A stretch of DNA of 13,778 nucleotides from a virus: UHGV virus genome UHGV-0121437, one strand, 5' to 3'. Shown piece by piece: positions 1 to 13,778 of the stretch. A program made the position numbers and the translations under genes. A model generated the notes under the pieces. It was not told the DNA's origin. It did not search any database and saw only the letters and a program-made list of their open reading frames with translations. Positions within the stretch are counted from its first letter, which is position 1, and every line of letters starts with the position of its first letter.

Positions 1-112
1 TTAGTGATTGTCCAGTCCTGCTCGTCTATGACGCGCTTAAAACCTGACACTTTGACCGGCGTTTCCGTGTAAATATCTGCCCGGCCGGTAGCCAGGCTGA
101 TGGAGAACTCTG

Positions 113-541
113 CTAACCGGCACCCGGCAGGGACGCCCAGATATTGCGACAGCGTGAAATGGCGCGCTCAATGCGTCCCGCCCGGATGTCATCCAGTGCA
201 CCGCGTTCGCGGATCAACTGAATGGCGAGTCTGTCCTGCGACAACGGACTGAAATCCGGCAGGGCAAGCTGTTTGCGGTAGTGCGGCCAGAACAGGTAAA
301 GCTGCTGATAGCGACCGGAGGCCGTGGATTTTTCACCGCGACGGTTAAACACCTTCGCCGGTCGGCCATGTGCGAACGGGTGGTCACTGTAGTCGGTGAA
401 GATTTCCGGCTTCCCGTCCAGTCCGGTGACTATCACGTCATAGCCCCGGTTTTTCGTCAGCGGGTGATTCGCCGTCCCTTCGGACACGGCCAGCATGTCG
501 AGAAAGGCAGCGATATTCTGATGCGTGTTAATTACCGGCAT
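113..541 (-). CDS. K: Endolysin (P2 gpK-type lysozyme)
   Basis: 142-aa ORF beginning MPVINTHQNIAAFLDMLAVSEGTANHPL, recognisable as P2 K. Its ATG shares one nucleotide with the Y stop (TAATG on the minus strand at 539-543). Confidence 0.85.
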   Translation of the reverse strand: MPVINTHQNIAAFLDMLAVSEGTANHPLTKNRGYDVIVTGLDGKPEIFTDYSDHPFAHGRPAKVFNRRGEKSTASGRYQQLYLFWPHYRKQLALPDFSPLSQDRLAIQLIRERGALDDIRAGRIERAISRCRNIWASLPGAG

Positions 542-822
542 TACGGTTTCCCCCTGCCCTTAAAACGGCGCTGAATGGCAATCTCAATCACCTGATAACC
601 GGCGATACCCAGCATGGAGCCGATGCCGCACACCGCAGGCAGTGACAGGTCAGGAAACTGCACCAGAACAACACCGGCAACCATCGAGACAAAACCACCG
701 AGCAACATGCGCCCGATAAACAGACGCGGGGTGATGGGTTCACCACCGGCAAGCACCTTGCCGACAACAATCAGCACCCCAATCATGAAAAGCGACAGGA
801 CGCTTTTTTCTTCTGCTGTCAT
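541..822 (-). CDS. Y: Holin (P2 gpY-type)
   Basis: 93-aa ORF, MTAEEKSVLSLFMIGVLIVVGKVLAGG..., hydrophobic membrane segments; lies between X and K as in P2. Confidence 0.85.
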   Translation of the reverse strand: MTAEEKSVLSLFMIGVLIVVGKVLAGGEPITPRLFIGRMLLGGFVSMVAGVVLVQFPDLSLPAVCGIGSMLGIAGYQVIEIAIQRRFKGRGKP

Positions 823-825
823 GCG

Positions 826-1029
826 TTACTCCCACAGATTGACAGTTTCAGCCACGGGTGCGGTCTGAACGTCGGGCAGTTCGACGGCGGTGCCGTGCGG
901 CAACACCGCACCCAGTTCAGCCAGTCCCGGATTTGCGGCGAGCACGGCCTCGACCACGCCCTCAGTGCGCCCGTAATACCGGACACAAATGGCGTCGAGC
1001 GTGTCGCCCTGTAGCGCAAAGGTCTTCAT
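826..1029 (-). CDS. X: Tail protein gpX (small LysM-like protein)
   Basis: The 67-aa product starts MKTFALQGDTLDAICVRYYGRTEGVV and ends TVNLWE. The start ATG (1027-1029) shares a nucleotide with the L stop (TGATG). The longer ORF-track version (826..1098) is an in-frame upstream extension running into L. Confidence 0.8.
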   Translation of the reverse strand: MKTFALQGDTLDAICVRYYGRTEGVVEAVLAANPGLAELGAVLPHGTAVELPDVQTAPVAETVNLWE

Positions 1030-1538
1030 CAGATTTGACTCACGATGCAGCGCGGCTTGTCCTGGATACGCGCCCCCGCCCAGCGCATATCCCGCCACAG
1101 TTCATCAATGGTGCTGTCAATGCTGTCAGCCTTCTTGTCGCCTTTCGCACTGGCATCCACGCCGCGATAACGCTCATAAAGCGACGCGGTCGCCATCGCA
1201 CACACGGCGCGCTCGTAGTAAAAAACTTTGATGCTTTCACCGTCGATATCGTCCGCCGGGACGTCCGCCAGACGCGTAAAACCGGCAGCAATTTTCTGTT
1301 CGCGGTACTCGTACAGCTCCGCATTCGTCTCCGCCATGCCTGACTTGATGGCCTCACGCAGACGGGCGGGGGCGACGGTCTGCTCAAGGCGCATACGTTC
1401 CCGGACGCGCTTCGGGTCGATATTGGGAAAAAAGAACGTGTTTTTAATCACCGGCTCGTCGCCTGCCGGTTGCGGGATGACCACCGTACCCTCACCGGAC
1501 ACGGGAGCCTCCTTTCGCGGAATAATCAGCGTCATCAT
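1029..1538 (-). CDS. L: Head completion/stabilisation protein gpL
   Basis: 169-aa product starting MMTLIIPRKEAPVSGEGTVVIPQPAGDEP. The ATG at 1536-1538 is preceded by GAGG (plus-strand cctc at 1544-1547). The ORF-track start at 1598 is an upstream extension without a ribosome-binding site. Confidence 0.85.
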   Translation of the reverse strand: MMTLIIPRKEAPVSGEGTVVIPQPAGDEPVIKNTFFFPNIDPKRVRERMRLEQTVAPARLREAIKSGMAETNAELYEYREQKIAAGFTRLADVPADDIDGESIKVFYYERAVCAMATASLYERYRGVDASAKGDKKADSIDSTIDELWRDMRWAGARIQDKPRCIVSQI

Positions 1539-1637
1539 GACTACCTCAGAAAAGTCGGGCGGTGGACGCCGGTGCAGTGTCAGGTGATTCACCCTCACTG
1601 ACCGGCGTGCCGCCCTGGCGCGGGGCGCATTCGGTTG

Positions 1638-2381
1638 TTAACTGGCTTTCTTTTTCGGGCGTCCACGTTTTGCCGGTGTCACGCTCCGGGTCTTACGCGG
1701 GGCGCGGGGGGACGCTTTGGGCTGCGGCTCCGGCTTCGGTTTCAGCTCCCGCTCCAGTCGTTCAATCTCTTTTTTGACGCCTGCCTGACAGTCGAGCTGT
1801 GTCGCACGTTGCAGGTGAGCCAGCGCACCGGCGGCATCACCAGCGTCACGCAGAAACAGACCGGTGATTTTGTGCAGCTTTGCGCGCACTTCATCAGGCA
1901 TGTCAGCCGTGGCGGTCAGTTCAAGGGTCTCCGTCAGCAGGCGGGTATCCACAGACTCACCGGCAGCGTGAGCGCGCATGGCCGCAAGCGCTACCTCCTC
2001 GGTGAACATGTACGGCGGGGTACGGCGGTGTTTACCCGGCATGGTCAGACCGTACTTCAGGACATAACGGGCAATCTCCAGCGCACCGGCAATATCGCCG
2101 GTATCCAGACGCCACAGCATGACCGTCATCAGAATGTCATCCTGTGCACCTTTGCCCTGCTCCAGCACGCCGTTCACCCACGGCAACCAGAACGGCAGCA
2201 GTTCGCGTTTTTTCGCGGCCTTCAGCTCTTTTGAATAAATCGCTTTCAGTGTGCGCTGGTCTGCGGCGAGCTTAACCAGCATCTGCTCATAGACAGTTGC
2301 ATGTCGCAGCGGGGCGGCTTCCCGCTGCGCGGTCATCGCTGCCGAGACCCGCATCATGTGGCGCTGTGCGGGACTCGTCAT
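1638..2381 (-). CDS. M: Terminase endonuclease/small subunit gpM
   Basis: 247-aa ORF, MTSPAQRHMMRVSAAMTAQREAAPLRHATVYEQ..., with a basic C-terminal tail (RGRPKKKAS), matching P2 M. GGGAG ribosome-binding site upstream of the ATG. Confidence 0.9.
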   Translation of the reverse strand: MTSPAQRHMMRVSAAMTAQREAAPLRHATVYEQMLVKLAADQRTLKAIYSKELKAAKKRELLPFWLPWVNGVLEQGKGAQDDILMTVMLWRLDTGDIAGALEIARYVLKYGLTMPGKHRRTPPYMFTEEVALAAMRAHAAGESVDTRLLTETLELTATADMPDEVRAKLHKITGLFLRDAGDAAGALAHLQRATQLDCQAGVKKEIERLERELKPKPEPQPKASPRAPRKTRSVTPAKRGRPKKKAS

Positions 2382-2384
2382 CGG

Positions 2385-3458
2385 TTACGCTCCCGGCTCT
2401 GCGGTCGCTTTATCCGGTGTGGAGAAATCACCGACCTTAATTTTTTCCACCAGACAACCGGCGGCGTAGTCCTCCACCACGTAATCAATGTTCATTGACT
2501 CGTAGTTCTCCACGCGGTCGAGTTTCGGGTTTTCCACAATCACGCGGCGATGGCTGTCATCCATGTAGTAGATGGACAGGTTTTCCAGCTTTGTGATGAG
2601 CATCGCATCCGCCGGGAAGTACGGGACGCGTACCGCCGGCAGGTTACCGATGCGTTTCTGGCTGATGATGACGTCAGCGGCCAGCATCTCGCTGTTGTCC
2701 TGCTCTTTGTTAACGATGGGGAAATACTTGTCCGCCAGTAGCTGACGCCCCACAATCACCACAAGGTCAGGGTCTTCCTGATACCACGGCTCAATCAGGT
2801 TGTTGGTCGCATCCATCACCAGTGCATCGAGGCTGGCATAATCACCGCCCTTACCCACGCGGATGACCTCAGAGGTGGTGTGCCCTTCCTCGTCCGTAAC
2901 CTTGCTCATCACGCGCGCCGGGGCTTCATTGCGGTATTTCTGCAGCCAGCCGACCGCCACATCCTGCAGCATCGGATTACTGCTGCGGTCAGAGGTTTCG
3001 GCACGCTTCACGCCGTTAAAACCGGCCATGATGAAATCAAGGGACTGGCGTTTGATAATGGCGTTACGGATACGGAGCTGGAAATCCTGATAACGCGCCC
3101 ACAGGTCCAGCGTTTTGTAGCGGATATAAAAATCGAAGTTAATCTGGTCGCATTCGTACTTGTTTGACGCCAGCTTCGAGAAGTCCTTCGGCTGACGCTC
3201 GGTGCCACCGGCGGTGTCGGTGGTGCTGGCGATGGAGCCGGTGACACCAATACCAATTTTTTCCCCTTTCATTTCGCTGACCGGCACAATGTTGATGCGG
3301 GTCAGAAAGTCAGAGGACTCCTGCATGGTGTTCATCAGGGTCTGGGTGACCGACGGTTCAACGGTGAATTTTTTCGACACATCACCGGCGTCGATGCTGT
3401 TCAGTTCGGCAACACGGGACAGGTAGGCATTAAATTTAAAGCGGGTTTCCTGGCGCAT
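2385..3458 (-). CDS. N: Major capsid protein gpN
   Basis: 357-aa ORF, MRQETRFKFNAYLSRVAELNSIDAGDVSKKFTVEPSVTQ..., matching P2 N. AGGAAAAA ribosome-binding site upstream. Confidence 0.9.
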   Translation of the reverse strand: MRQETRFKFNAYLSRVAELNSIDAGDVSKKFTVEPSVTQTLMNTMQESSDFLTRINIVPVSEMKGEKIGIGVTGSIASTTDTAGGTERQPKDFSKLASNKYECDQINFDFYIRYKTLDLWARYQDFQLRIRNAIIKRQSLDFIMAGFNGVKRAETSDRSSNPMLQDVAVGWLQKYRNEAPARVMSKVTDEEGHTTSEVIRVGKGGDYASLDALVMDATNNLIEPWYQEDPDLVVIVGRQLLADKYFPIVNKEQDNSEMLAADVIISQKRIGNLPAVRVPYFPADAMLITKLENLSIYYMDDSHRRVIVENPKLDRVENYESMNIDYVVEDYAAGCLVEKIKVGDFSTPDKATAEPGA

Positions 3459-3516
3459 AGTTTTTCCTGAAATTAAGGGTTAATCGTGAAGGTTTTCCCG
3501 GACTGACTGACGCCGG

Positions 3517-4074
3517 TCAGCAGTTCGTCATCAGGGCGTCACCGCCACCGCCGGTGGCTTTGCTGCGGCGCTGCTGGGTCAGACTTTCGGTGTGGTCGAG
3601 ACTGTTTTTCAGGCGGGTGAATGCCTGACTGGTTTCATCCGCCCTGTCAGTTACATCCTGCTTAAGTGCCGAAAAGGCGGTTTCCATCTCAGCAAGGCGC
3701 TGCTCAGTGGCGCTCAGTTTTTCCTGCACATGCTCAGCGACAGCGGTCACCGCTTCATGCACGTCATTCAGACGGGCGTCATCGCTGGCCTGTTTGCGGC
3801 CAAAAATGGATTTCACCTTTTCGGTCAGGGCGGTGAACACGGTTTCAGGCAGGTCTTCAAATTCCAGCTCAACAGGCGTTGCCACTGAAATCAGGTTTTC
3901 AGGGCTTAATTTGAAGCGGTTCAGAGGGTTGTGTTTTGCCGTGCGGCAGAATTCCAGGTATTCCGTGCCGAGGCTTGCCGGGTCATCGGTGACGGCCAGA
4001 CCCACCAGATAACATTTGCCTGTATTGGCAAAGTTCGGCTGAATTTCCATTGAGGTACTCGACCGCCGTGACAT
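3517..4074 (-). pseudogene. O: Capsid scaffolding protein gpO, N-terminally truncated fragment (about 100 N-terminal residues missing)
   Basis: 185-aa ORF whose body ([28 protein letters not shown] ... [11 protein letters not shown]) matches the C-terminal two-thirds of P2 O (about 284 aa as I recall). The first codons (MSRRSSTS) are read from the antisense of Q-derived sequence, so the start is fortuitous. Confidence 0.7.
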
Positions 4075-4162
4075 TCTGGATTACGTCGAGTGCATCAGTA
4101 ACGGCAGATGGTATGAGCCACCGGTCAGCTTTACCGGTCTGGCAAAAAGCCTGCGTGCTGCC

Positions 4163-4990
4163 GTGCATCACAGCTCACCGATTTACGTCAAACGTAATAT
4201 TCTGGCCTCGACATTTATCCCGCATCCGTGGCTTTCCCAGCAGGATTTCAGCCGCTTTGTGCTGGATTTTCTGGTGTTCGGTAATGCGTTTCTGGAAAAG
4301 CGTTACAGCACCACCGGTAAGGTCATCAGACTGGAAACCTCACCGGCAAAATATACCCGCCGTGGCGTGGAGGAGGATGTTTACTGGTGGGTGCCGTCCT
4401 TCAACGAGCCGACAGCCTTCACGCCCGGCTCCGTGTTTCACCTGCTGGAGCCGGATATTAATCAGGAGCTGTACGGCCTGCCGGAATATCTCAGCGCCCT
4501 TAACTCTGCCTGGCTGAATGAGTCGGCCACGCTGTTCCGCCGCAAGTATTACGAAAATGGCGCTCATGCCGGATACATCATGTACGTTACCGATGCCGTG
4601 CAGGATCGCAACGATATCGAAATGCTTCGCGAAAACATGGTGAAGTCGAAAGGCCGCAACAACTTTAAAAACCTGTTTCTCTATGCCCCGCAGGGGAAAG
4701 CCGACGGCATTAAAATTATCCCGCTCAGTGAAGTGGCGACGAAGGACGATTTTTTTAATATCAAAAAAGCCAGCGCCGCTGACCTGCTGGACGCGCACCG
4801 CATCCCCTTTCAGTTGATGGGCGGTAAGCCGGAGAACGTCGGGTCGCTGGGTGATATTGAGAAAGTGGCAAAGGTCTTTGTCCGCAATGAGCTTATCCCG
4901 TTACAGGACAGGATTCGGGAAATAAACGGCTGGCTCGGTCAGGAGGTCATCCGCTTTAAAAACTACTCACTGGACACTGACAACAGCTGA
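4163..4990 (+). pseudogene. Q: Portal protein gpQ, 5'-truncated (first conventional start is GTG at 4163)
   Basis: 275-aa ORF, (V)HHSSPIYVKRNILASTFIPHPWLSQQDF ... YSLDTDNS, matching P2 Q (about 344 aa). The frame is open from 4043 and encodes Q-like [25 protein letters not shown] with no ATG/GTG/TTG before 4163; the authentic N-terminus is absent. Confidence 0.75.
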
Positions 4991-4995
4991 ACATC

Positions 4996-5017
4996 GCCGC
5001 CTGCGGGCGGCTTTTTT
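4996..5017 (+). terminator. Intrinsic terminator downstream of Q
   Basis: GCCGCC (4996-5001), loop TGCG, GGCGGC (5006-5011), then TTTTTT (5012-5017), 6 nt after the Q stop. Confidence 0.6.
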
Positions 5018-5158
5018 ACATCCCGTCATCACGCCCTCACACACTCACCACCGCACAAAACAGCCCGCAGGCAAACCAACGCCCAACGGACAGACTAAGC
5101 GCCGTCACGACGCGCTGAGACGCTGAAAAAATAAAATCAGCAACACCGCCAGCGCGCA

Positions 5159-5177
5159 GTGCTTTCCCCGCCTCGCC
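5159..5177. other. cos site (19-nt cohesive-end sequence of P2-type phages)
   Basis: gtgctttccccgcctcgcc is the reverse complement of GGCGAGGCGGGGAAAGCAC, which I recall as the P2 cohesive end. It lies just beyond Q, as expected. Confidence 0.7.
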
Positions 5178-5200
5178 CGCCCGCTTCGTGGGGCGGTTTT
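5177..5200 (+). terminator. Terminator-like hairpin abutting cos
   Basis: CCGCCC (5177-5182), 8-nt loop, GGGCGG (5191-5196), then TTTT (5197-5200). Confidence 0.4.
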
Positions 5201-5227
5201 AATGCAGATGCATGTGAACACTCGAGA

Positions 5228-5257
5228 TTGACTGGATAAGACCTAAGGTGCATTAAT
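5228..5257 (+). promoter_or_regulatory. Candidate sigma70 promoter for the AT-rich cassette
   Basis: TTGACT (5228-5233), 18-bp spacer, then TGcATTAAT (extended -10-like, hexamer 5252-5257), about 60 bp upstream of the first cassette ATG. Prediction by eye only. Confidence 0.35.
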
Positions 5258-5315
5258 TTTTTGTTTTTTTACATGCAGTTTGATGCAAGAACATGCCCTC
5301 TAAAGTCTTGGTTTA

Positions 5316-6365
5316 ATGTGCTACACTTTTATACAAACCTATGATAAAAGCGATAAAAAATCTTCCATTTTGGCGAACATTATGACGGATATTGAAACAG
5401 CTCGATGGAACACAGAAAGTGCCGCTTTGTTGGCACTATCAGAAATACATGGCGTTAGTTATTGGACTCTATATAAAGTTGCTCAAAAGGGAATCAGATT
5501 TAGAGACATTGTTACCAGCCAAACATTAGCCAACTTTGAGTATCTACTTGGAGTAAAACTTCATCGCCAACCTTATTATTTGAATGAAGGCAATTGGTCT
5601 GTTTTTCGGGATAGCATGATTTCTACGGCTAAAATATTACTCACACATTATCATAATAGTGGTTACAAAATCATCCACCATGGTTCTCCGAGCTATCCAG
5701 ACAAGTTGAATGACCTGTCTGAGCCGCCTTTCTGGTTGTTTGCTCAAGGCAATGTATCCTTGCTAGATAAAAAGTGTGTTGGAGTTGTCGGCACCAGAAA
5801 CCCAACCGCACTTGGAATTTATTTAACTCAAGCAGTAATCTCGCAATTTATAGATTCGGATTATTCAACTGTAAGCGGTTTAGCATATGGTATAGATCAA
5901 TCTGCACATGAAGCATCCCTGTTATTTAAAATACCGACAATTGCTGTGTTAGGTACTGGCGTAAACTCAAATTATCCCAAAAATAGTGGCGAGATGAGAG
6001 GCCATATTGTAAATAATGGCGGACTGATTCTTACTGAGTATTTACCAAACCAAAAACCATCACAGGAAAACTTTGTTCGTAGAAATAGAATTCAAGCAGC
6101 TTTAAGTGATGTATTGATCCCAGTTGAATGGGGCCTAAAAAGTGGGACATCTCATACTGTGAGATATGCTGCTCAATTAAAAAGAGCGATACTTTGTCCT
6201 TTACTTAGGGGAACTACACCTCAAGAAGAGATTAAACATGCCTTGTCAGAGTACTCAGCTACGATAATGAATATTCCACTATCCGATTTTAAAGACGTGC
6301 AAAGCTTAATTAAATCAGCATCCGGTGTAAAAACACAGCAACTTTCTCTTCTGGGAGATGAATAA
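5316..6365 (+). CDS. DprA/Smf-like protein (helix-hairpin-helix-like N-terminus plus Rossmann/SLOG-type DprA core)
   Basis: 349-aa ORF in AT-rich DNA. Core motifs resemble the DprA Rossmann domain: VGVVGTRNPTALG, VSGLAYGIDQSAHEASL, TIAVLGTGVNSNYPKNS, FVRRNRIQAALSDVLIPVEWGLKSGTSHTVRYA. The start may instead be the in-frame ATG at 5382; neither has a strong ribosome-binding site. Confidence 0.7.
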   Translation: MCYTFIQTYDKSDKKSSILANIMTDIETARWNTESAALLALSEIHGVSYWTLYKVAQKGIRFRDIVTSQTLANFEYLLGVKLHRQPYYLNEGNWSVFRDSMISTAKILLTHYHNSGYKIIHHGSPSYPDKLNDLSEPPFWLFAQGNVSLLDKKCVGVVGTRNPTALGIYLTQAVISQFIDSDYSTVSGLAYGIDQSAHEASLLFKIPTIAVLGTGVNSNYPKNSGEMRGHIVNNGGLILTEYLPNQKPSQENFVRRNRIQAALSDVLIPVEWGLKSGTSHTVRYAAQLKRAILCPLLRGTTPQEEIKHALSEYSATIMNIPLSDFKDVQSLIKSASGVKTQQLSLLGDE

Positions 6366-7641
6366 TATGTATTTAAAGGCAGTTATATTTTCAATCGCAG
6401 ATGTTGTATTACCATTAACATCTAACACTCAACCTCAGGAACTAAAATCTAGAATCGACTCTGAATTACGTAAGTTGTTTGCGTTTTTGTCATCAAAAGG
6501 GATTAAAGTTATCTTCTTGACAAATAAAAATAGAAACGTGAGAACACATGACGGGATCGTAACACTAGACGAATACCTAAAAAGGAAATTCCCAGAATCA
6601 ATTCACTTTTGCCGTGAACTCGACAACAACATACCAGCAAAACAAACAGGGAAGGCCATAGATTTCATCATGGCTGCGTTAGAATTAAAACGAAACGAAA
6701 TGATCTATGTAGGGCGTTCTCAGGAAGACTTACAAGCAGCTACCAACGGGAATACCCTATTTATTAATGCGACCTGGTATGAACCGGTTACTGAGTACGG
6801 TTTTCAATTTTCAGAACCCAAAGAAATCGCTAGATTTATTGATGTCTTTTGCTTAAGAGAGCAGTTGTGGGGATGGCAAGGGCATTTTAATGAAGATGTT
6901 CACTACTACGCCTTAGCACCATTTAGCACATATGTCCCTGAATTTACAATGTATTCAGCCAATGCAAGAGACCTCGCAAAGCTATCGGTTGGAAGCCCCG
7001 ATTTTTGGATAAGATATCTTGGTGCTAGCATTTATTTCTCTGGCTTAAGTGAAGGAGCAAGTTTTATAACCACCTACGTTGGACATAACGCTGAAGATCC
7101 TTATAAACTAGCAAACATTATGGAGCATGACCTAAAAGGTTTAGCAGTCTCATTCAAAGGAAAGTATCTAAAAGATCTATTCTTACGACATACAACAGCT
7201 ATTAAATCACAGCAAGCTCGGATAGCTAAGCAAGAAGTAAACATCACATCTCAAATAAACACCGTTAATTTAAATCCTGCCCCTATTAAAAACCTCATCA
7301 CCGGCGAAAGATATACCAACCCTCCTAAATTGAAAGGTAAGAAAATATTAGTTATTGATGATTTTTGCACTGAAGGAAATGCTCATGAAACAGCCAGAAT
7401 GTATCTAAAAGCTGCAGGCGCAAATGTAATAAATATATCGTGGTTAAAAACCATCAATCGTGACGTTTCTATCTGTGAACCAACTCGCAAGATACGGCCA
7501 TGGGAGGCCAATACACTTGATGTTGATGACATTAACTATGTCGGTACGATTGGTTATGCTGAAAATGTAACTCACGGTAGTGCACCTCAAGTGTTATCAG
7601 AAAAAATTCAACAATATGATAACTGGGACTGGCCACAATAA
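6358..7641 (+). CDS. Two-domain protein: N-terminal HAD-like fold with degenerate catalytic motifs, C-terminal type I phosphoribosyltransferase (PRTase) domain
   Basis: 427-aa ORF in AT-rich DNA. The C-terminal KKILVIDDFCTEGNAHETARMYLKAAGANVI fits the PRPP-binding loop of type I PRTases (four hydrophobic residues, DD, then T-x-G). The N-terminal KAVIFSIADVVLPL, KVIFLTNKN and MIYVGRSQEDLQAATNGNTLFINATW resemble HAD motifs I, II and IV, but the nucleophile position is not Asp. It overlaps the upstream gene by 8 bp; an alternative ATG at 6367 has GGGAG 9 nt upstream. Confidence 0.65.
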   Translation: MNNMYLKAVIFSIADVVLPLTSNTQPQELKSRIDSELRKLFAFLSSKGIKVIFLTNKNRNVRTHDGIVTLDEYLKRKFPESIHFCRELDNNIPAKQTGKAIDFIMAALELKRNEMIYVGRSQEDLQAATNGNTLFINATWYEPVTEYGFQFSEPKEIARFIDVFCLREQLWGWQGHFNEDVHYYALAPFSTYVPEFTMYSANARDLAKLSVGSPDFWIRYLGASIYFSGLSEGASFITTYVGHNAEDPYKLANIMEHDLKGLAVSFKGKYLKDLFLRHTTAIKSQQARIAKQEVNITSQINTVNLNPAPIKNLITGERYTNPPKLKGKKILVIDDFCTEGNAHETARMYLKAAGANVINISWLKTINRDVSICEPTRKIRPWEANTLDVDDINYVGTIGYAENVTHGSAPQVLSEKIQQYDNWDWPQ

Positions 7642-7816: not shown

Positions 7817-10072
7817 TTACCACTCATCAATCACTGGATATTTGAATTTTTTATTATCATAAATCACCATCGCCCCACGCGCCAGCGCCTCAAGCTCCCA
7901 TCGCTGAGGCCTGATACCGTTCTGAGCAAGGTCAACGCGGATACGGGTAATTTGCAATCGTTCCGGCCGGGTCAGCCTGGCCGATGGTGCAATTTCATGT
8001 GGTTTTAACGGGCTTCCGTTTCTTTGCTGACGATTTGGTGTTCTCAGGCCGTGTTTTAATGCGCCCCTGAGCACCCTCACGACCTCCGGGTCATTCCATT
8101 CGATAACACCGTCATCAACCAGATTAAGCACTGCTGCGGCGTGTTCAGAAGGTGTGGGAGCCGGTAACGAAGTATCACCACCGGTGAGCTTTCCACAGTT
8201 ATTGACAGGACTCCGAGGCGCGGCGATGCCGCTTTTTAAAGTCAAAGGCTCAACGACCGGCACTTTCGGAACAATGCGCCAGTCCGTCGTTCTGGTGATA
8301 TGAATATGACGCGCGCCGAGATGCGGCGCGTAAATGCCGACCACTCTCCCGACTTCTTCCTCGTACTCGTTAACGTCATCCGACGGACTACGGGCAACCC
8401 TGACAGTCTGACAATCGCGCGGAACATTTGCCCCACCCTGCGCGCTGATATACAACGCAAAATCACCACTGTCTGCGGCAGCGCGTGCAGCCTCGACGCG
8501 TTCGTCAAACTCATCAGCAATGCTGACGCCGCGAGGCAATTTGCGTAGTTCACGGTAAGCCCCCATTGTCGGCAGGCCAACCGTTTTAAATTGCGGAATG
8601 CGCCACGTTGACGCCCATGCGGTAACAGCCGCGGCAGTGTCTTTCAGCGGCCTGCCGGTATCGTTATCGAGCTGACCATCCAGTGCATAGCCATCGATGT
8701 TTTTTGAGATGTATTTCGCGATATATCCCGCAGCACCGCCCCGGTTAAGGTGTTTTGCCTGAAAACGGTTTCGCGCGGCTCCTCTTTCGTCACCATCCTC
8801 TTTGAGCGCATAGCGACGCATGATTTCGATAATCTGGTTACGCTGGCGTGGATTACAAAAAAGCATCATATGCCAGTGCGGCGTTCCGTCGTGGTGTGGC
8901 TCGACGACTCGCAAACCGTAGACCTGTAAATCATTATCCTTGAATGCCGTGCGCATCAGGCTCCAGATGCGGCAGAGATAACGCTGCGCATCCTTTGGAT
9001 TAAATGCCTCATCATTCCAGCCGTGATTTAGCTGGACGGTTTTACTTTCGCCTTTTCCGACCTGACGTGTCGGGTGATACTTTGACGGCGCGGTCAGAGT
9101 GATAAACATCCCCACATCACCCTCTGCGGCGGCGTAACGCTCAATACCGGCGATGGTGTTCATCAGCTCCATCCGGCGAATTTCAGGATTAGAAATACTG
9201 CCCATCACCTTACTGATAAGGTCGATGCGCTCGCCGGTTTCCCTGTTTTCGAGGTCACACGATTTAAGAAATTCCAGATTTGCCTGGCGGCGTGCACGCA
9301 CATCACGAATGGCATGTTTACTGGCATAAGGAGAACGGTCTTTATTGACCTCCCCGACAGCAATCAGTAACGCCTCATGCCAGCGCATACGCTGGCCTTT
9401 AAGCTGATGAGTCCACCATTCATCGTTAAACAGACGGGCAATGGCAGAATATGCCTGCCTCGTGGTCATCTGTCCTTTACGGTATTTTTTCCAGTAGAGA
9501 GGGGAAATATTGAAAGCACGTGCAGCGCCAGCAACATGACCATACAGATGCGCCTGCGCCTCATCTGTAAACAGCGATTCTTTCTCGCCATGTGCATCAA
9601 CCCATGCATCGCAGAGTTCCTCATACATCATGAAAAGCTGCGATGAGATACGGGCGGCAAACTTTTTCAGCTCCTTGTCATTCATTCCAGGCAGGCGCGC
9701 ATAGTGGTCACGCTCTGCCAGAAACAGCAACGACGCGTCGGTGTTCATTTCATGGCGCTGATTCACGCGCTCAATACGCGGCCATAAACGGCGCTGAAAA
9801 GTGGATGTGAGGAAATAAAACCCGTGCACCGGGCTTTTATTGCGCCGGATGTAGTCATAGCGTGAAGTAAACAGCGAGCGCAAAAAGTAAGGCAGGCGAT
9901 TAATCGTGGATAAAACACCTTGCACCTGACGCATCTCGTCACGTGTAAGGGGTCTTTCGCGCCCGACGGCCTCGCGTGGCGCGTTCCATGCATAAGCACC
10001 GGTAAACGTCTCACCGGTGCCTGCGGCAAATGCTGACGGAGGGACAAAACGCCCGGAGGCTTTAACGGCCAT
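7817..10072 (-). CDS. A: Replication initiation protein gpA (rolling-circle nicking endonuclease)
   Basis: The long ORF matches P2 A from MAVKASGRFVPPSAFAAGTGETFTGAYAWNAPREAV. The start is placed at the ATG at 10070-10072; the ORF-track start at 10114 adds 14 codons with no ribosome-binding site. Confidence 0.9.
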   Translation of the reverse strand: MAVKASGRFVPPSAFAAGTGETFTGAYAWNAPREAVGRERPLTRDEMRQVQGVLSTINRLPYFLRSLFTSRYDYIRRNKSPVHGFYFLTSTFQRRLWPRIERVNQRHEMNTDASLLFLAERDHYARLPGMNDKELKKFAARISSQLFMMYEELCDAWVDAHGEKESLFTDEAQAHLYGHVAGAARAFNISPLYWKKYRKGQMTTRQAYSAIARLFNDEWWTHQLKGQRMRWHEALLIAVGEVNKDRSPYASKHAIRDVRARRQANLEFLKSCDLENRETGERIDLISKVMGSISNPEIRRMELMNTIAGIERYAAAEGDVGMFITLTAPSKYHPTRQVGKGESKTVQLNHGWNDEAFNPKDAQRYLCRIWSLMRTAFKDNDLQVYGLRVVEPHHDGTPHWHMMLFCNPRQRNQIIEIMRRYALKEDGDERGAARNRFQAKHLNRGGAAGYIAKYISKNIDGYALDGQLDNDTGRPLKDTAAAVTAWASTWRIPQFKTVGLPTMGAYRELRKLPRGVSIADEFDERVEAARAAADSGDFALYISAQGGANVPRDCQTVRVARSPSDDVNEYEEEVGRVVGIYAPHLGARHIHITRTTDWRIVPKVPVVEPLTLKSGIAAPRSPVNNCGKLTGGDTSLPAPTPSEHAAAVLNLVDDGVIEWNDPEVVRVLRGALKHGLRTPNRQQRNGSPLKPHEIAPSARLTRPERLQITRIRVDLAQNGIRPQRWELEALARGAMVIYDNKKFKYPVIDEW

Positions 10073-10337
10073 ATGAGCCAAAAGCCTCTGAACAACGCTT
10101 GCTGAGTTGCTCAACCTGCGCGTTTAAATCAGCAAAAGACTTTGCGCTTCCGGTCAGAATATCGTGATGCATCAGGCCGGAAACGAGCTGGCTTAATTTC
10201 GGGTAATAACCAGCCACCGCCAGCCATTCCTGACCGGCGTTTTTACCGCTTTCCGCTCTCTTTTTCTCGTGGAGAATAAACTGAAAGCTGTCACTGGTAA
10301 CGACATAACGTTCGCCAATTTCAATACGAATACTCAT
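10062..10337 (-). CDS. Small early-operon protein immediately upstream of A (P2 orf83 position)
   Basis: 91-aa ORF MSIRIEIGERYVVTSDSFQFILHEKKR...; its start overlaps the preceding stop (ATGA) and its end overlaps the A start. Confidence 0.6.
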   Translation of the reverse strand: MSIRIEIGERYVVTSDSFQFILHEKKRAESGKNAGQEWLAVAGYYPKLSQLVSGLMHHDILTGSAKSFADLNAQVEQLSKRCSEAFGSYGR

Positions 10338-10558
10338 GACGTTCTCCGGTAATGTTTGTTTTTTGCTTCAAAGACTGACTGGCAGGAAACACAACGCGTG
10401 GCTGACGGATAAGCCGCACGACGGGCAGCAGGTATTGGCGCGTCACACTCTTCGCAAACCAGCGCAGAAACACCGCAATGCTTTACCCTTGCCGCGTTAA
10501 TCTGGCGCTCCAGTAATTCAGCCTGTTGTTCCTGAATAAAATCTACGTTGTCCGGCAT
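10334..10558 (-). CDS. TraR/DksA-family C4 zinc-finger protein (P2 orf82 position)
   Basis: 74-aa ORF with four Cys arranged C-x(6)-C-x2-C ... C-x2-C (HCGVSALVCEEC ... RCVSCQ), typical of TraR/DksA-like zinc fingers. Confidence 0.65.
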   Translation of the reverse strand: MPDNVDFIQEQQAELLERQINAARVKHCGVSALVCEECDAPIPAARRAAYPSATRCVSCQSVFEAKNKHYRRTS

Positions 10559-10863
10559 TACCAGCTCCTTTTGTCGTTAAGTTTTTTAAATTCATCAGCG
10601 CAATAGCTGGCAATTTCTGTCGTTAATTTCGTCAGTTCATCCACGGAGGAGATTTGCTTGTGAAATACAGCGCGTTTAACAAGTAAATTGACCACATCAG
10701 ACAGGAGATTTAATTCGTTCTGATAAATCGCGATAACAGACTCAGTTATTTCGCGTTTTTCTTTATCAAGACCAAGTTGAATAAGAGATAAATCGCCATT
10801 TTTCATAACGGCGATTTTTAAGGCGTTATTCAGTAATACAACTGAACGAGAACAGGACATCAA
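10558..10863 (-). CDS. Early-operon hypothetical protein (P2 orf81 position)
   Basis: 101-aa [34 protein letters not shown]...; overlapping stop/start with both neighbours; visibly more AT-rich than neighbouring genes. Confidence 0.55.
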
Positions 10864-11084
10864 AGCACCTCCCCGCGAGACAATCCGATATTGTGAAATT
10901 TTTCCGACTCCTGACTGAGCAGCTCGACTATCTCCACGCGGGATAACTCCGCCTTTGTGATGTGGCGAATCATGGCGTCAAGATGAGAAGAAAAGCGCGT
11001 CGCTGCGTCGGCCTGTGCTTCGGTTCTGGCCTGTTGCAGCAGTAATGCGTATTTACCGCACTGATTTTCAGAAACTGTATGCAT
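10860..11084 (-). CDS. Early-operon hypothetical protein (P2 orf80 position)
   Basis: Product starts [24 protein letters not shown]; the ATG at 11082-11084 is preceded by GGAGAAAG. The ORF-track start at 11117 is an extension. Confidence 0.6.
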
Positions 11085-11147
11085 GACTTTCTCCAGGCAA
11101 AAAGAAGCCCCGCACAATTAAGTGCGTTAAAAACTCTGGTTAATTAC

Positions 11148-11648
11148 TTAATGCAGATATTGCTCTGGTTTTACCGACGTCAGAATTGTCGGTGCATACT
11201 CAAACAGGCTGAATAATTCACGTAATGCACGGAATAAAGCATCACGCCAGTAACATGATTCTTCATTAATTCGCCAGTATGGCTGGTTGAATTCTTTTTC
11301 AGTCAATCCGGCATGCATAAATAAAGTACGACGCTGACTGACTGTTAAAAAACTAATATATGCATACTCACTTGCGCCAACCTGACGGCGTTTTGAGAAT
11401 GCCCCACGCAATTCATCAATTGCACATACCAGTCGTTCACGTTCGACATCATTCATTTCTTCAAAACGCATCGTTGCGTGACGCTGTTTTAACTGCGCAT
11501 GGAAGCAAACCGTTAGCCGTTCGCGTTCCATCATCTGATTATAATAATCGCATGTCTCCTGCCAGCGAGGGACGGCAAGATGCTTACCAATTATCCGGCG
11601 CATAGCTGCTGGCTGTTTTTCAACGAGATTAAGCGTCATCACTGTCAT
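11148..11648 (-). CDS. B: Replication protein gpB
   Basis: 166-aa ORF MTVMTLNLVEKQPAAMRRIIGKHLAVPRWQETCDYYNQ..., matching P2 B in length and sequence as recalled. Confidence 0.85.
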   Translation of the reverse strand: MTVMTLNLVEKQPAAMRRIIGKHLAVPRWQETCDYYNQMMERERLTVCFHAQLKQRHATMRFEEMNDVERERLVCAIDELRGAFSKRRQVGASEYAYISFLTVSQRRTLFMHAGLTEKEFNQPYWRINEESCYWRDALFRALRELFSLFEYAPTILTSVKPEQYLH

Positions 11649-11815
11649 TTCCAGACCCTCCGGCTTTTCAGAAAGGTCAGAGCCTTTTTTAACGGACTCT
11701 GTTTTTTGGTGCGGATAATGATTCCCTTACGCCCCTTACCGTGGGTGATGGTGAAGTCAATCGCCCTAGGGCTTTCGTTACGCAGTAACTGAGCAATACA
11801 ACGAGGCTCATTCAT
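11645..11815 (-). CDS. Small basic protein (P2 orf78 position)
   Basis: 56-aa product MNEPRCIAQLLRNESPRAIDFTITHGKGRKGIIIRTKK... with AAGGAG immediately upstream of the ATG at 11813-11815. The ORF-track start at 11839 would overlap cox. Confidence 0.6.
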   Translation of the reverse strand: MNEPRCIAQLLRNESPRAIDFTITHGKGRKGIIIRTKKQSPLKKALTFLKSRRVWK

Positions 11816-11825
11816 ACGGTTCTCC

Positions 11826-12101
11826 TTAACGTGGTTCACCGAGACCTAACCACATCAACCAGCCGTCACGAATCTCTTTAGGGCGGCTTTCATAAGCCAG
11901 TTTTAGTCCGTTATTCCATGCCGGAAGGTATACCCAATATTCACCTGCACGACCTGAAGCTGATTGTGGATCGGTCATATCAATTACAGGCAGCTTTCCT
12001 TTATCAATCATCCGACGAACCGCTCCTGTCGATTTTCCTATTAGTTTTGCGAACTCCTGATAAGGAATCGCATCAGTCATGAGTGTTACTTGCTTGCTCA
12101 T
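11826..12101 (-). CDS. cox: Cox (excisionase and lytic-switch regulator)
   Basis: 91-aa ORF MSKQVTLMTDAIPYQEFAKLIGKSTGAVRRMIDKGKLPV..., matching P2 Cox; divergent from C. Confidence 0.9.
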   Translation of the reverse strand: MSKQVTLMTDAIPYQEFAKLIGKSTGAVRRMIDKGKLPVIDMTDPQSASGRAGEYWVYLPAWNNGLKLAYESRPKEIRDGWLMWLGLGEPR

Positions 12102-12138
12102 GTCGTCCTCTAGCCCTCATGAATTGCGTTTAATGTCT

Positions 12139-12212
12139 TATAATGCCTTTTAGTGCCCACATCCAAGCACTAAACAATCTACATCTAAACTAAATACTAT
12201 TGAGATCTAAAC
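12139..12212. promoter_or_regulatory. Immunity switch region: Pc-like -10 and candidate C-repressor operator repeats over the lytic promoter
   Basis: Perfect TATAAT at 12139-12144 on the plus strand, oriented toward C. Two identical 8-bp direct repeats atctaaac at 12183-12190 and 12205-12212 (22 bp centre to centre). An 8-bp inverted repeat tttagtgc/gcactaaa at 12149-12156 and 12167-12174. P2 C is known to bind two direct repeats flanking the Pe -10. Confidence 0.5.
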
Positions 12213-12215
12213 ACC

Positions 12216-12515
12216 ATGTCAAACACGATAAGCGAGAAGATAGTCTTAATGCGAAAATCAGAGTATTTGAGCAGACAACAACTTGCTGATTTAACAGGGG
12301 TTCCGTATGGCACGCTGAGTTACTATGAAAGTGGTCGTTCAACACCTCCAACAGATGTCATGATGAACATCCTGCAGACCCCACAATTCACCAAATACAC
12401 TTTATGGTTCATGACCAATCAGATCGCTCCTGAGTCCGGGCAAATTGCGCCCGCTCTCGCACACTTTGGGCAAAACGAAACAACGTCGCCCCACTCCGGT
12501 CAAAAGACTGGTTAA
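12216..12515 (+). CDS. C: Immunity repressor C
   Basis: 99-aa ORF MSNTISEKIVLMRKSEYLSRQQLADLTGVPYGTLSYYESGRSTPP... with a helix-turn-helix region, matching P2 C. Confidence 0.9.
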   Translation: MSNTISEKIVLMRKSEYLSRQQLADLTGVPYGTLSYYESGRSTPPTDVMMNILQTPQFTKYTLWFMTNQIAPESGQIAPALAHFGQNETTSPHSGQKTG

Positions 12516-12630
12516 CAATTCATCGTGAATATATTCATCACAAGTGCCTACTATTGGTGGCTAAATTTCAGCCACCACGAAAAAAGCGATTAGTAGTCAC
12601 AAAAAAACACACCACTCGGAGGGTTTTCTG

Positions 12631-13644
12631 ATGGCAATCAAAAAACTCGATGATGGTCGATATGAAGTGGACATCCGCCCTACTGGACGTAATGGAAAAC
12701 GCATCCGTAGGAAGTTTGATAAGAAAAGCGAAGCTGTCGCTTTCGAGAAATACACGTTGTACAACCACCACAATAAAGAATGGCTATCAAAACCAACAGA
12801 CAAGCGACGTCTGTCGGAGCTGACACAGATCTGGTGGGATTTAAAGGGTAAACACGAAGAGCATGGGAAATCTAATCTTGGAAAAATTGAAATCTTCACA
12901 AAAATAACGAATGACCCATGCGCATTTCAAATTACGAAATCGCTTATCAGCCAGTACTGCGCCACCCGAAGAAGTCAGGGTATTAAACCTTCGAGTATCA
13001 ATCGTGATTTAACATGTATTAGCGGCATGTTTACAGCCCTGATTGAAGCGGAGTTATTCTTTGGTGAGCACCCTATCAGAGGGACAAAAAGGCTTAAGGA
13101 GGAAAAACCAGACACAGGCTATCTCACGCAGGAAGAAATTGCCTTACTGCTTGCAGCACTTGACGGCGACAACAAAAAGATTGCGATTCTTTGCCTGAGT
13201 ACAGGAGCACGTTGGGGAGAAGCAGCTCGTTTGAAAGCAGAAAATATCATCCATAACCGCGTCACGTTTGTTAAAACGAAAACAAACAAACCACGCACCG
13301 TCCCGATCTCAGAGGCTGTTGCCAAAATGATCGCGGATAACAAACGAGGTTTTTTATTCCCTGATGCTGATTACCCTCGCTTCAGACGAACAATGAAAGC
13401 AATAAAACCGGATTTGCCAATGGGGCAAGCCACACATGCACTAAGGCACAGCTTTGCCACTCATTTCATGATTAATGGAGGAAGTATTATCACGCTACAA
13501 CGGATACTAGGTCACACGCGGATTGAGCAAACTATGGTTTACGCTCATTTTGCGCCAGAGTACCTTCAGGACGCCATTTCTCTTAATCCGCTAAGAGGTG
13601 GTACTGAGGCCGAGAGTGTCCACATAGTGTCCACAGTAGAGTAA
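12631..13644 (+). CDS. int: Tyrosine integrase
   Basis: 337-aa ORF MAIKKLDDGRYEVDIRPTGRNGKRIRRKFDKKSEAVAFEKY... with the C-terminal tyrosine-recombinase region (HALRHSFATHFMINGGSIITLQRILGHTRIEQTMVYAHF); GGAGGG ribosome-binding site upstream. Confidence 0.9.
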   Translation: MAIKKLDDGRYEVDIRPTGRNGKRIRRKFDKKSEAVAFEKYTLYNHHNKEWLSKPTDKRRLSELTQIWWDLKGKHEEHGKSNLGKIEIFTKITNDPCAFQITKSLISQYCATRRSQGIKPSSINRDLTCISGMFTALIEAELFFGEHPIRGTKRLKEEKPDTGYLTQEEIALLLAALDGDNKKIAILCLSTGARWGEAARLKAENIIHNRVTFVKTKTNKPRTVPISEAVAKMIADNKRGFLFPDADYPRFRRTMKAIKPDLPMGQATHALRHSFATHFMINGGSIITLQRILGHTRIEQTMVYAHFAPEYLQDAISLNPLRGGTEAESVHIVSTVE

Positions 13645-13723
13645 CGTTTAAGGGCTTTCAGTGGTAATTTATGCCGCTCAAACCCGCATTGTACCGTTGA
13701 AAGCCCCTACTGGTGACACCCTA

Positions 13724-13750
13724 AATCTCCCTTACACGGGCTTATTTTTT
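13724..13750. other. 27-bp att core (P2 attP/attL-type)
   Basis: aatctcccttacacgggcttatttttt is the reverse complement of AAAAAATAAGCCCGTGTAAGGGAGATT, the P2 att core as I recall it; 80 bp beyond the int stop. Confidence 0.7.
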
Positions 13751-13778
13751 TATGCATAAGCCCTATCTCTGGTAACCG

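Follow-up and report, generated by a model that had tools for sequence, protein, structure and literature searches.

The stretch analysed here, hereafter the window, comprises 13,778 nucleotides and is a complete metagenome contig with 5.5x coverage (ENA ERZ1755939, NODE_1724_length_13778_cov_5.5). Blastn comparison showed that it is collinear, in reverse orientation, with phage P2 (NC_001895). Positions 7000-3482 of P2 correspond to 538-4056 of the window (K, Y, X, L, M, N and the 3' part of O), 1123-1 to 4054-5177 (Q without its first 33 codons, the terminator tQ and cosL), 33593-33547 to 5159-5206 (cosR and 29 bp), and 30286-24356 to 7820-13750 (A, orf83-80, B, orf78, cox, C, int and the att core). 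Every gene called in the window was either a P2 orthologue or a member of the ShosTA pair, and no extra ORF was found. The surviving genes are full length, 96-100% identical to those of P2, and contain neither frameshifts nor nonsense codons (Table 1).

Window positions 13751-13778 come from the host and do not differ from the yegR-side flank of Escherichia coli K-12, so the element is integrated, and the integration locus is cyaR/yegR. Beyond the contig end lie ogr and, on the same side, the second att site. With the approximately 0.5 kb located there, made up of ogr, att and the remainder of D, the element has a size of about 14.3 kb, compared with 33.6 kb for P2. It has retained int, C, cox, B (98.8% identical to P2), A, the replication origin ori, cos, N, M, L, X, Y and the ShosTA pair. 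Since these genes are full length and nearly identical to those of P2, derepression could allow the element to excise and replicate, and packaging at a low frequency is conceivable from the sequence. A circular substrate could in principle be formed with int, cox, B, A, ori and the att core.

The ShosTA genes have a GC content of 36-40%, compared with 52-58% in the flanks, and are located in the tin/old hotspot between cos and A. A DprA-PRTase system at the P2 hotspot has been validated (Rousset 2022; PMC9122126), and activity of the family against T7 and lambda was reported (PMC9122126), while the window copy is known from its sequence. The pair in the window does not differ from this known system: both proteins match the PADLOC ShosA and ShosT models from end to end, and they occupy the same hotspot. 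The name ShosTA used in PADLOC reportedly goes back to Millman 2022. An identical ShosT protein was found in 1,387 collection blocks, and all ten of the places examined were intact prophages, encoding P of 590-595 aa, Q of 344 aa and O of 284 aa. Because identical ShosT is common in intact prophages, intact P2-like phages explain the distribution of ShosTA without the remnant, and its wide occurrence is probably owed to them.

Table 1. Coordinates of genes, sites and junctions in the window
Feature	Position	Strand	Remarks
Tail gene D, 3' fragment (D')	1-113	minus	P2 23857-23745; blastn 94.7% to P2; left side of the 16.3-kb deletion
Endolysin K'	113-541	minus	142 of 165 aa; stop codon created at the K'/D' junction 113/114
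Holin Y	541-822	minus	Full length; 98-99% identical to P2 (block 541-1538)
X	826-1029	minus	Full length; 98-99% identical to P2 (same block)
Head completion protein L	1029-1538	minus	Full length; 98-99% identical to P2 (same block)
Small terminase M	1638-2381	minus	247 aa, intact; PF05944, E 5e-48; 98% identical to P2 M; promoter PO deleted
Major capsid protein N	2385-3458	minus	357 aa, intact
Scaffold/protease O'	3517-4056	minus	Without first 105 codons; PF05929 profile positions 100-268 only
Deletion junction, 2,358 bp	4054-4056		P2 1124-3481; GGT microhomology (3 bp)
Portal Q'	4054-4990	plus	Without start and first 33 codons; residual ORF 4163-4990, in frame, no internal defects
tQ, terminator of the (deleted) P-Q operon	4996-5011	plus	P2 annotation 160-181 and terminator scan
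Conserved cos core, 62 bp	5152-5213	minus	TGCGCGC, 19-nt end, then ~36 bp on the cargo side with GC hairpin and ATGCAnCTGCAT
19-nt cohesive end	5159-5177	minus	GGCGAGGCGGGGAAAGCAC; exact P2 copy; site of the staggered terminase nicks
GC hairpin, 6 bp (putative structure)	5177-5196	plus	CCGCCC...GGGCGG, then TTTT (TTTTAAT); inside the core
Second TGCAT-N5-TGCAT pair	5273-5287	minus	~100 bp from the cohesive end
ShosA, DprA-like	5382-6365	plus	PADLOC E 2e-231, end to end; PF02481
ShosT, HAD-like and PRTase	6358-7641	plus	PADLOC E 4e-296, end to end; weak PF00156 and HAD
Replication initiator A	7817-10072	minus	751 aa; 97% identical to P2
ori nick region	8201-8226		Within A; 26-mer identical to P2
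orf83, orf82, orf81, orf80, B, orf78, cox	10062-12101	minus	All full length; cox and orf78 100% identical to P2
Immunity repressor C	12216-12515	plus	100% identical to P2; Pe/Pc operators identical
Integrase	12631-13644	plus	99.4% identical to P2
att core	13723-13750		Followed by 28 bp of host flank (whole 13723-13778), identical to K-12 yegR-side flank

The cos site and its flanks

A preceding sequence-only reading had described the 19-nt cohesive end and its flanking structure as intact and proposed that a P2-like helper could package the element and thereby spread the defence genes. The cohesive end is indeed an exact and unique match: GGCGAGGCGGGGAAAGCAC is present once in the window with 0 mismatches, while none of 200 shuffles matched even when 3 mismatches were allowed, and the region aligns to cosL and cosR of P2 NC_001895 alike. 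The order Q', tQ, cos, ShosTA, A places it in the usual position of cos in the P2 family.

For the flanks, the circularised cos junctions of P2, P4 and 186 were aligned with the window, followed by prophages with five other cargo types. The block 5152-5213 was kept in P2, P4, 186 and the P2-like prophages with all of these cargo types, and the window had no private changes inside it. The P2 and P4 cos share with the window the same 19-nt end, the same core of ~55-60 bp and the same place between Q and the cargo hotspot; the differences are the variant of the hairpin loop and a private substitution at 5143, outside the core. The loop is where the phages vary naturally, being ACG in the window, as in intact relatives, GTG in P2 and GCA in P4. 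In the prophages with other cargo, homology with the window ends at 5212-5214, and this natural cargo exchange marks the outer edge of the required cos sequence on the cargo side. Folding of 5150-5215 as DNA gave an energy no better than that of shuffles (z = 0.17), so the flanking structure rests on conservation rather than thermodynamics. Therefore, the earlier claim of an intact flanking structure stands as far as conservation of the core and flanks is concerned, but not as a fold of unusual stability.

The stretch 5159-5365 is identical between the window and most of the ten intact prophages with identical ShosT. Private changes relative to these prophages were found on the Q side only, namely at 5043, as a 1-bp deletion near 5081, and at 5143. 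The last of these, an A in the window and a C in all others, is the nearest private substitution and lies 16 bp outside the cohesive end. P4 is entirely different in the stretch around 5143, yet it is packaged by the P2 terminase. The sequenced P2-like phage 10W (OM475433), obtained from lysogens and also carrying ShosTA, is identical to the window over 5144-5289. By every sequence criterion tried, the site is a P2-family cos, and the cis packaging site is as intact as such comparison shows; the flanking packaging signals were undisrupted in the alignment with P2 and its relatives, as the sequence-only reading had supposed. A "55-bp cos" is ascribed to Ziermann and Calendar 1990 by two later papers (PMC2231350, PMC9594776), and the 62-bp core at 5152-5213 corresponds in sequence to the site as cited there.

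A second TGCAT-N5-TGCAT pair was found further into the cargo side. Its position is constant in P2, P4, 186 and all cargo types, though the surrounding sequence differs. This pair may be an auxiliary terminase-binding element; longer cos fragments gave far better transduction (PMC9594776), which would fit such a role.

Two deletions and the genes they removed

The first deletion, of 2,358 bp, takes P, the start and first 33 codons of Q, and the first 105 codons of O. The divergent late promoters PP/PO and the Ogr site (P2 3016-3127) fall inside the deleted segment, and N, M, L, X and Y are therefore promoterless. No sigma-70-like promoter was predicted in 3900-5450. Gene callers start O' at 4050 and report a 177-aa product, and an exact-product look-up of the 185-aa O' ORF returned no record. 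The absence of P noted earlier is thus explained by loss of P2 1124-3481, and M is present as described, full length and with a match to its family profile. Its presence, however, is not relevant to packaging in the way that was suggested, since a helper supplies its own M and the local copy has lost its promoter.

The second deletion is much larger, about 16.3 kb (P2 7425-23744), with the junction at 113/114. From position 114 on, the window follows K from P2 7424 downward, while the D' fragment on the other side is 100% identical to the full-length D of E. coli KFu022. This deletion took the final 23 codons of K together with lysA, lysB, lysC, R, S, orf30, V, W, J, I, H and G, as well as the Z/fun locus, FI, FII, E, E', T, U and the greater part of D. 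Consequently, every tail gene is missing, including those for the baseplate, fibre, sheath, tube and tape measure. The PV and PF late promoter regions are also inside this deletion.

The genes L, M, N, O, P, Q and T are considered hallmarks of functional Peduoviridae (PMC13100340). Of these, the window has L, M and N in intact form and lacks P and T altogether, while O and Q have lost 105 and 33 N-terminal codons, respectively. The regions of the Ogr-dependent late promoters PP/PO, PV and PF are deleted. The description of a terminase-deficient prophage in need of P and capsid functions was therefore wrong in degree: portal, scaffold and K are truncated, and the late promoters and all tail genes are gone. 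The truncation of Q and O with the loss of PP/PO, the 16.3-kb tail deletion, and the status of the window as a whole contig of low coverage had all been missed. The lesson is that one missing gene found by eye hid larger damage, namely a tail-module deletion of 16 kb and the loss of late promoters.

Prophage decay and possible routes of cargo transfer

The site at 5159-5177 is an authentic P2-family cos, and it is now probably a passive relic in a recently decayed prophage with two deletions. In intact relatives, the terminase (M and P) would bind the core on circular monomers, nick it 19 nt apart and thread the DNA into the procapsid. The smaller deletion (2.36 kb) cost the prophage P, its divergent late promoters and the 5' ends of Q and O, and the larger one (16.3 kb) the 3' end of K, lysA, lysB, lysC, R, S, all tail genes and most of D. 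What is left is a module for lysogeny, excision and replication, ShosTA, cos, and a promoterless N-M-L-X-Y block. Such a remnant cannot supply terminase, portal, scaffold or tails, its lysis cassette is incomplete, and the head genes still present are unpowered. The absence of frameshifts and nonsense codons in the surviving genes suggests that the deletions are recent. The cos would probably still be cleaved if presented on a circle to a helper terminase. The remnant appears to be inherited vertically rather than to act as a mobile element.

Decay of this kind is not exceptional. E. coli EF7-18-58 carries an independent P2-like prophage with P deleted, the portal truncated and a second deletion in the tail region, and KFu022 contains another, multiply deleted P2-like prophage of independent origin. 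At the same locus as the element in the window, K-12 has the cryptic prophage PR-X (ogrK and yegZ), a 629-bp remnant present in 358 of 5,426 complete genomes. In contrast to PR-X (0.63 kb), the 14.3-kb element keeps the whole early region, cos and the defence cargo. Since EF7-18-58, KFu022 and PR-X show it independently, decay by large deletions is routine, and the element in the window is a case of ordinary prophage decay. Its direct importance is small: a textbook P2 cos, a known defence system and a routinely decayed prophage.

A possible way out for this copy of ShosTA, which we put forward tentatively, is homologous recombination with a superinfecting or co-resident P2-like phage, replacing the hotspot cargo of the latter. 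Stretches for crossover are available on both sides, about 1.1 kb of Q'-cos on one and at least 2.3 kb of A on the other. These flanks are 96-99% identical to those of many intact P2-like phages in which the cargo differs, homology ending at 5212-5214 and resuming in A. Phage P2 Hy dis is itself a recombinant that arose with a defective P2-like prophage of E. coli B as the partner. Exchange of hotspot cargo between conserved flanks is known (PMC9122126), and there is a precedent for exit by recombination (PMC3945230). For the element in the window, this route is proposed by analogy, and immunity would stop lytic growth of homoimmune phages, leaving fewer opportunities. Moreover, intact phages with ShosTA are already common, and the window copy adds little to them.

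An alternative that we regard as unlikely is that the remnant behaves like a satellite: a helper would provide P, Q, O, tails and lysis, the Int and Cox of the element would excise it, its A and B would replicate it, and the resulting circle of about 14.3 kb would be packaged. The P2 and P4 packaging systems prefer closed circles rather than concatemers as the substrate (PMC2231350), and the P2 terminase packages circles, including P4, with just a ~55-bp cos (PMC2231350, PMC9594776). Cosmids of 5-10 kb with cos were packaged as monomers (PMC2231350), so the size of 14.3 kb would be no barrier, and P2 also transduces cos plasmids (PMC9594776). In the window, the cos core and flanks are intact, as are int, cox, B, A, ori and the att core, although excision also needs an intact att site on the ogr side.

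Because C and the operators are identical to those of P2, a homoimmune superinfecting helper would be repressed. A co-resident homoimmune P2 that became spontaneously derepressed would be expected to derepress the remnant simultaneously. Heteroimmune P2-like prophages do occur: two of them had near-identical late genes and cos and a different cox/C/int region. However, to our knowledge P2 is not SOS-inducible, and the P2 A protein acts preferentially in cis, so that a heteroimmune helper alone would neither derepress nor replicate the remnant. Cross-complementation by Cox is, in addition, allele-specific, with Hy dis Cox complementing P2 cox3 and W-phi Cox failing to do so (PMC3936717), which also counts against this scheme.

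Other observations point in the same direction. No antirepressor, Sid-like or other gene for exploitation of a helper was found in the window, the contig displays the integrated state, and the deletion junctions were seen in just one other metagenome assembly, the P-junction being absent from IMG/VR. The idea of mobilisation by a helper thus keeps its cis site, but its premise was understated and evidence of mobilisation was not obtained. Packaging in trans is mechanistically possible but unsupported, restricted by the exact P2 immunity, and unneeded to explain the spread of the cargo; if this copy of ShosTA does leave the cell, recombination is at least as plausible a route as packaging of the remnant. 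Were helper packaging nevertheless to take place, the defective P2-like prophages that E. coli very commonly carries would form a mobilisable reservoir of defence genes, and a link to the origin of satellites such as P4 would be provided.

Still less probable, and in our view a distant prospect, is that the 14.3-kb element is an incipient P2-derived satellite, a "mini-P2" without virion genes that would have retained integration, immunity, replication, cos and the defence cargo and would ride on co-resident or heteroimmune P2-like helpers, with deletions perhaps made by the integrase at att-like sites. P4 (11.6 kb) and cos-type phage-inducible chromosomal islands are likewise small and integrated, with their own integrase and replication, a cos of the helper type and defence cargo beside cos. 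The element has its own integrase and replication and a helper-compatible cos, which is trivial for a fragment of P2. Unlike P4 and PICI-like satellites, it lacks genes for helper derepression, capsid-size redirection and terminase redirection. It also differs from them in having the helper's own immunity and silent capsid genes, and in being known from only two assemblies rather than as a recurrent family. It does not qualify as a satellite by any existing definition. If it were an incipient one, it would offer a natural snapshot of helper-dependent elements arising from their helpers.

Occurrence of the junctions and their breakpoints

Both junctions are spanned by a scaffold from a second assembly (ENA ERZ28578488, scaffold_5862), which matches window positions 1-4108 at 99.88%, with 5 differences in 4.1 kb, and extends 23 nt further into D than the window. 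As this second assembly reproduces both junctions, the two deletions are real and not assembly errors. The notion that they are artefacts and that the true prophage is intact is scarcely tenable. In its favour are the low coverage (5.5x) of the window contig, the frequent coexistence of several P2-like prophages in a sample, and the many other assemblies that break within K and O. Against it, the second assembly belongs to a separate ENA analysis whose contig names follow another assembler's scheme, and the junction homology of just 2-3 bp is too little for a de Bruijn mis-join. In addition, the apparent pile-up of contig ends at K codon 142 and at O codon 108 was produced by selection through the exact-product look-up, with a contribution from real nonsense alleles.

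That pile-up was also considered as a sign that many isolates contain intact prophages alongside the remnant. This was rejected, because the exact-product look-up selects contigs that break at the codon concerned. The other cases in the pile-up were independent nonsense alleles, with TAA in K in one instance and an amber codon in O in four.

Neither junction was found in 5,426 complete E. coli genomes, and exact 30-mers across each of them were present in none of the GTDB representative genomes and none of the JGI metagenomes. The 30-mer across the P-deletion junction was likewise absent from IMG/VR viral contigs, and among 153 billion gene positions the window contig was the sole entry for the truncated Q' product; for a rare element, such absence from databases is weak evidence. 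The junctions are thus known from two assemblies only, the window contig and the second scaffold. Given the differences between these, the remnant has either been sampled twice or is maintained in more than one population. The spread of the defence cassette by way of the remnant, as suggested previously, has left no trace in these data, since outside the window the junctions occur only in this one further metagenome assembly.

The breakpoints themselves were also compared. A likeness among the four of them was considered, since K and Q share GGTGCCGGT, but it was discarded as too weak (P of ~0.02 in simulation). A tandem PR-X beside the intact ShosTA prophage in CFSAN051542 was looked for and is absent; the ogr side abuts pflB there.

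As a separate observation, the D' endpoint of the window coincides, within 0-3 nt, with the D' endpoint of PR-X. The window reads ...GGAGAACTCTGC TA up to the breakpoint and continues with ACCGGC of K, while K-12 PR-X reads ...GGAGAACTCTGC TA and continues with CACGGGCTTATTTTTT of the att core. The D alleles of the window and PR-X differ at 4 of 115 positions. The intact D of KFu022, which matches the window completely, reads CTGCTACACCCCG at the breakpoint, and TACAC is common to this D breakpoint and the centre of the att core, CCCTTACACGGGC. Judging from these sequences, the shared D breakpoint suggests a recurrent, possibly integrase-mediated event, and it hints at preferred paths of P2 prophage decay in which the integrase may take part.

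Deletion junctions and the D breakpoint

Window 1-115 covers the 113/114 junction, where the 3' portion of tail gene D (from P2 23745) abuts the endolysin gene K at P2 7424 with nothing in between, and the approximately 16.3 kb lost in this second deletion comprises the entire tail and accessory lysis module. The stop codon of the 142-aa truncated endolysin K' arises from the D/K junction itself. The D remnant (D', endpoint within 100-115) terminates at the same nucleotide as the D' pseudogene yegZ of the K-12 cryptic P2-like prophage PR-X, within the common TA/TACAC, and both elements occupy an identical chromosomal locus. The partner of D' is the att core in PR-X and K in the window, and 4 differences separate the D alleles of the two elements over 115 positions. 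At the breakpoint, the sequence of the intact D allele is CTGCTACACCCCG, with TACAC common to this allele and the att core. The D breakpoint may be a recurrent, integrase-mediated site. PR-X was found in 358 of 5,426 complete genomes.

Similarity was also seen among the other breakpoints. The sequence GGTGCCGGT(T)AC is present at both the K and Q breakpoints (113/114 and 4054-4056; intact sites in L041, the ShosTA-carrying P2-like phage 10W), and an imperfect GGTA..GACC homology is common to the O and Q sites. Since simulation gave P of about 0.02 for the longest word shared among four random breakpoints, the likeness among the K, Q, and O sites is only suggestive.

The window is a complete SPAdes metagenome contig (ENA ERZ1755939 NODE_1724, 13,778 bp, coverage 5.5x), one end of which lies in D' and the other 28 bp beyond the att core. 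At both of these points, the presence of other P2-like sequences or of empty sites would make the assembly graph fork.

Surroundings of cos and ShosTA gene starts

The cargo side of cos carries two TGCAT-N-TGCAT pairs, at 5202-5212 and 5273-5287; in the window as a whole, three such pairs were observed versus 0.47 expected. In P2, P4, 186, and prophages that carry unrelated cargo, the distal pair stays at a distance of about 95-112 bp from the cohesive end, even though the neighboring sequence is not conserved. It may represent an auxiliary terminase recognition element. Comparison with ten intact relatives and P2 revealed three differences private to the window, at 5143, 5043, and about 5081, all within the non-coding stretch between the portal gene Q and cos. 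The closest to the cohesive end, 16 bp away, is A at 5143, where all the others have C.

The longest open reading frame of ShosA begins at 5316, but alignment to the PADLOC profile does not begin until residue 23 and the gene callers place the start at 5382 (327 aa); therefore, the latter is likely the true start. The ShosT start varies among records, being either 6367 (424 aa) or 6358 (427 aa).

Other damaged P2-like prophages

Single nonsense codons were identified in otherwise intact P2-like prophages of other assemblies, and their 177-aa (O) and 142-aa (K) products match the deletion products of the window by chance.

Damaged P2-like prophages and alleles compared with the window
Locus	Gene or position	Feature
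PR-X (L038)	E. coli K-12 NC_000913 2167183-2167811	Cryptic prophage with D' pseudogene yegZ
L026, L028, L034, L035	O gene	TAG at codon 99 or 102
L016	K gene	TAA at codon 143

Independent P2-like prophages with multiple deletions were found in E. coli EF7-18-58 (L037, NZ_CP068591) and KFu022 (L040, NZ_CP091677). The former lacks P and the 5' end of the portal gene, has a second deletion from the holin to baseplate gene J, contains reverse-transcriptase cargo, and has two additional genes in the interval between the portal gene and cos. In the KFu022 prophage, U is fused directly to R. In KFu022 and E. coli CFSAN051542 (L039, NZ_CP020835), the int side of the prophage adjoins yegR/yegS, as in the window, but the ogr side adjoins pflB/focA. 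In K-12, pflB/focA lie 1.2 Mb away. This arrangement suggests that P2-type att sites or prophages were the endpoints of a large rearrangement of the chromosome.
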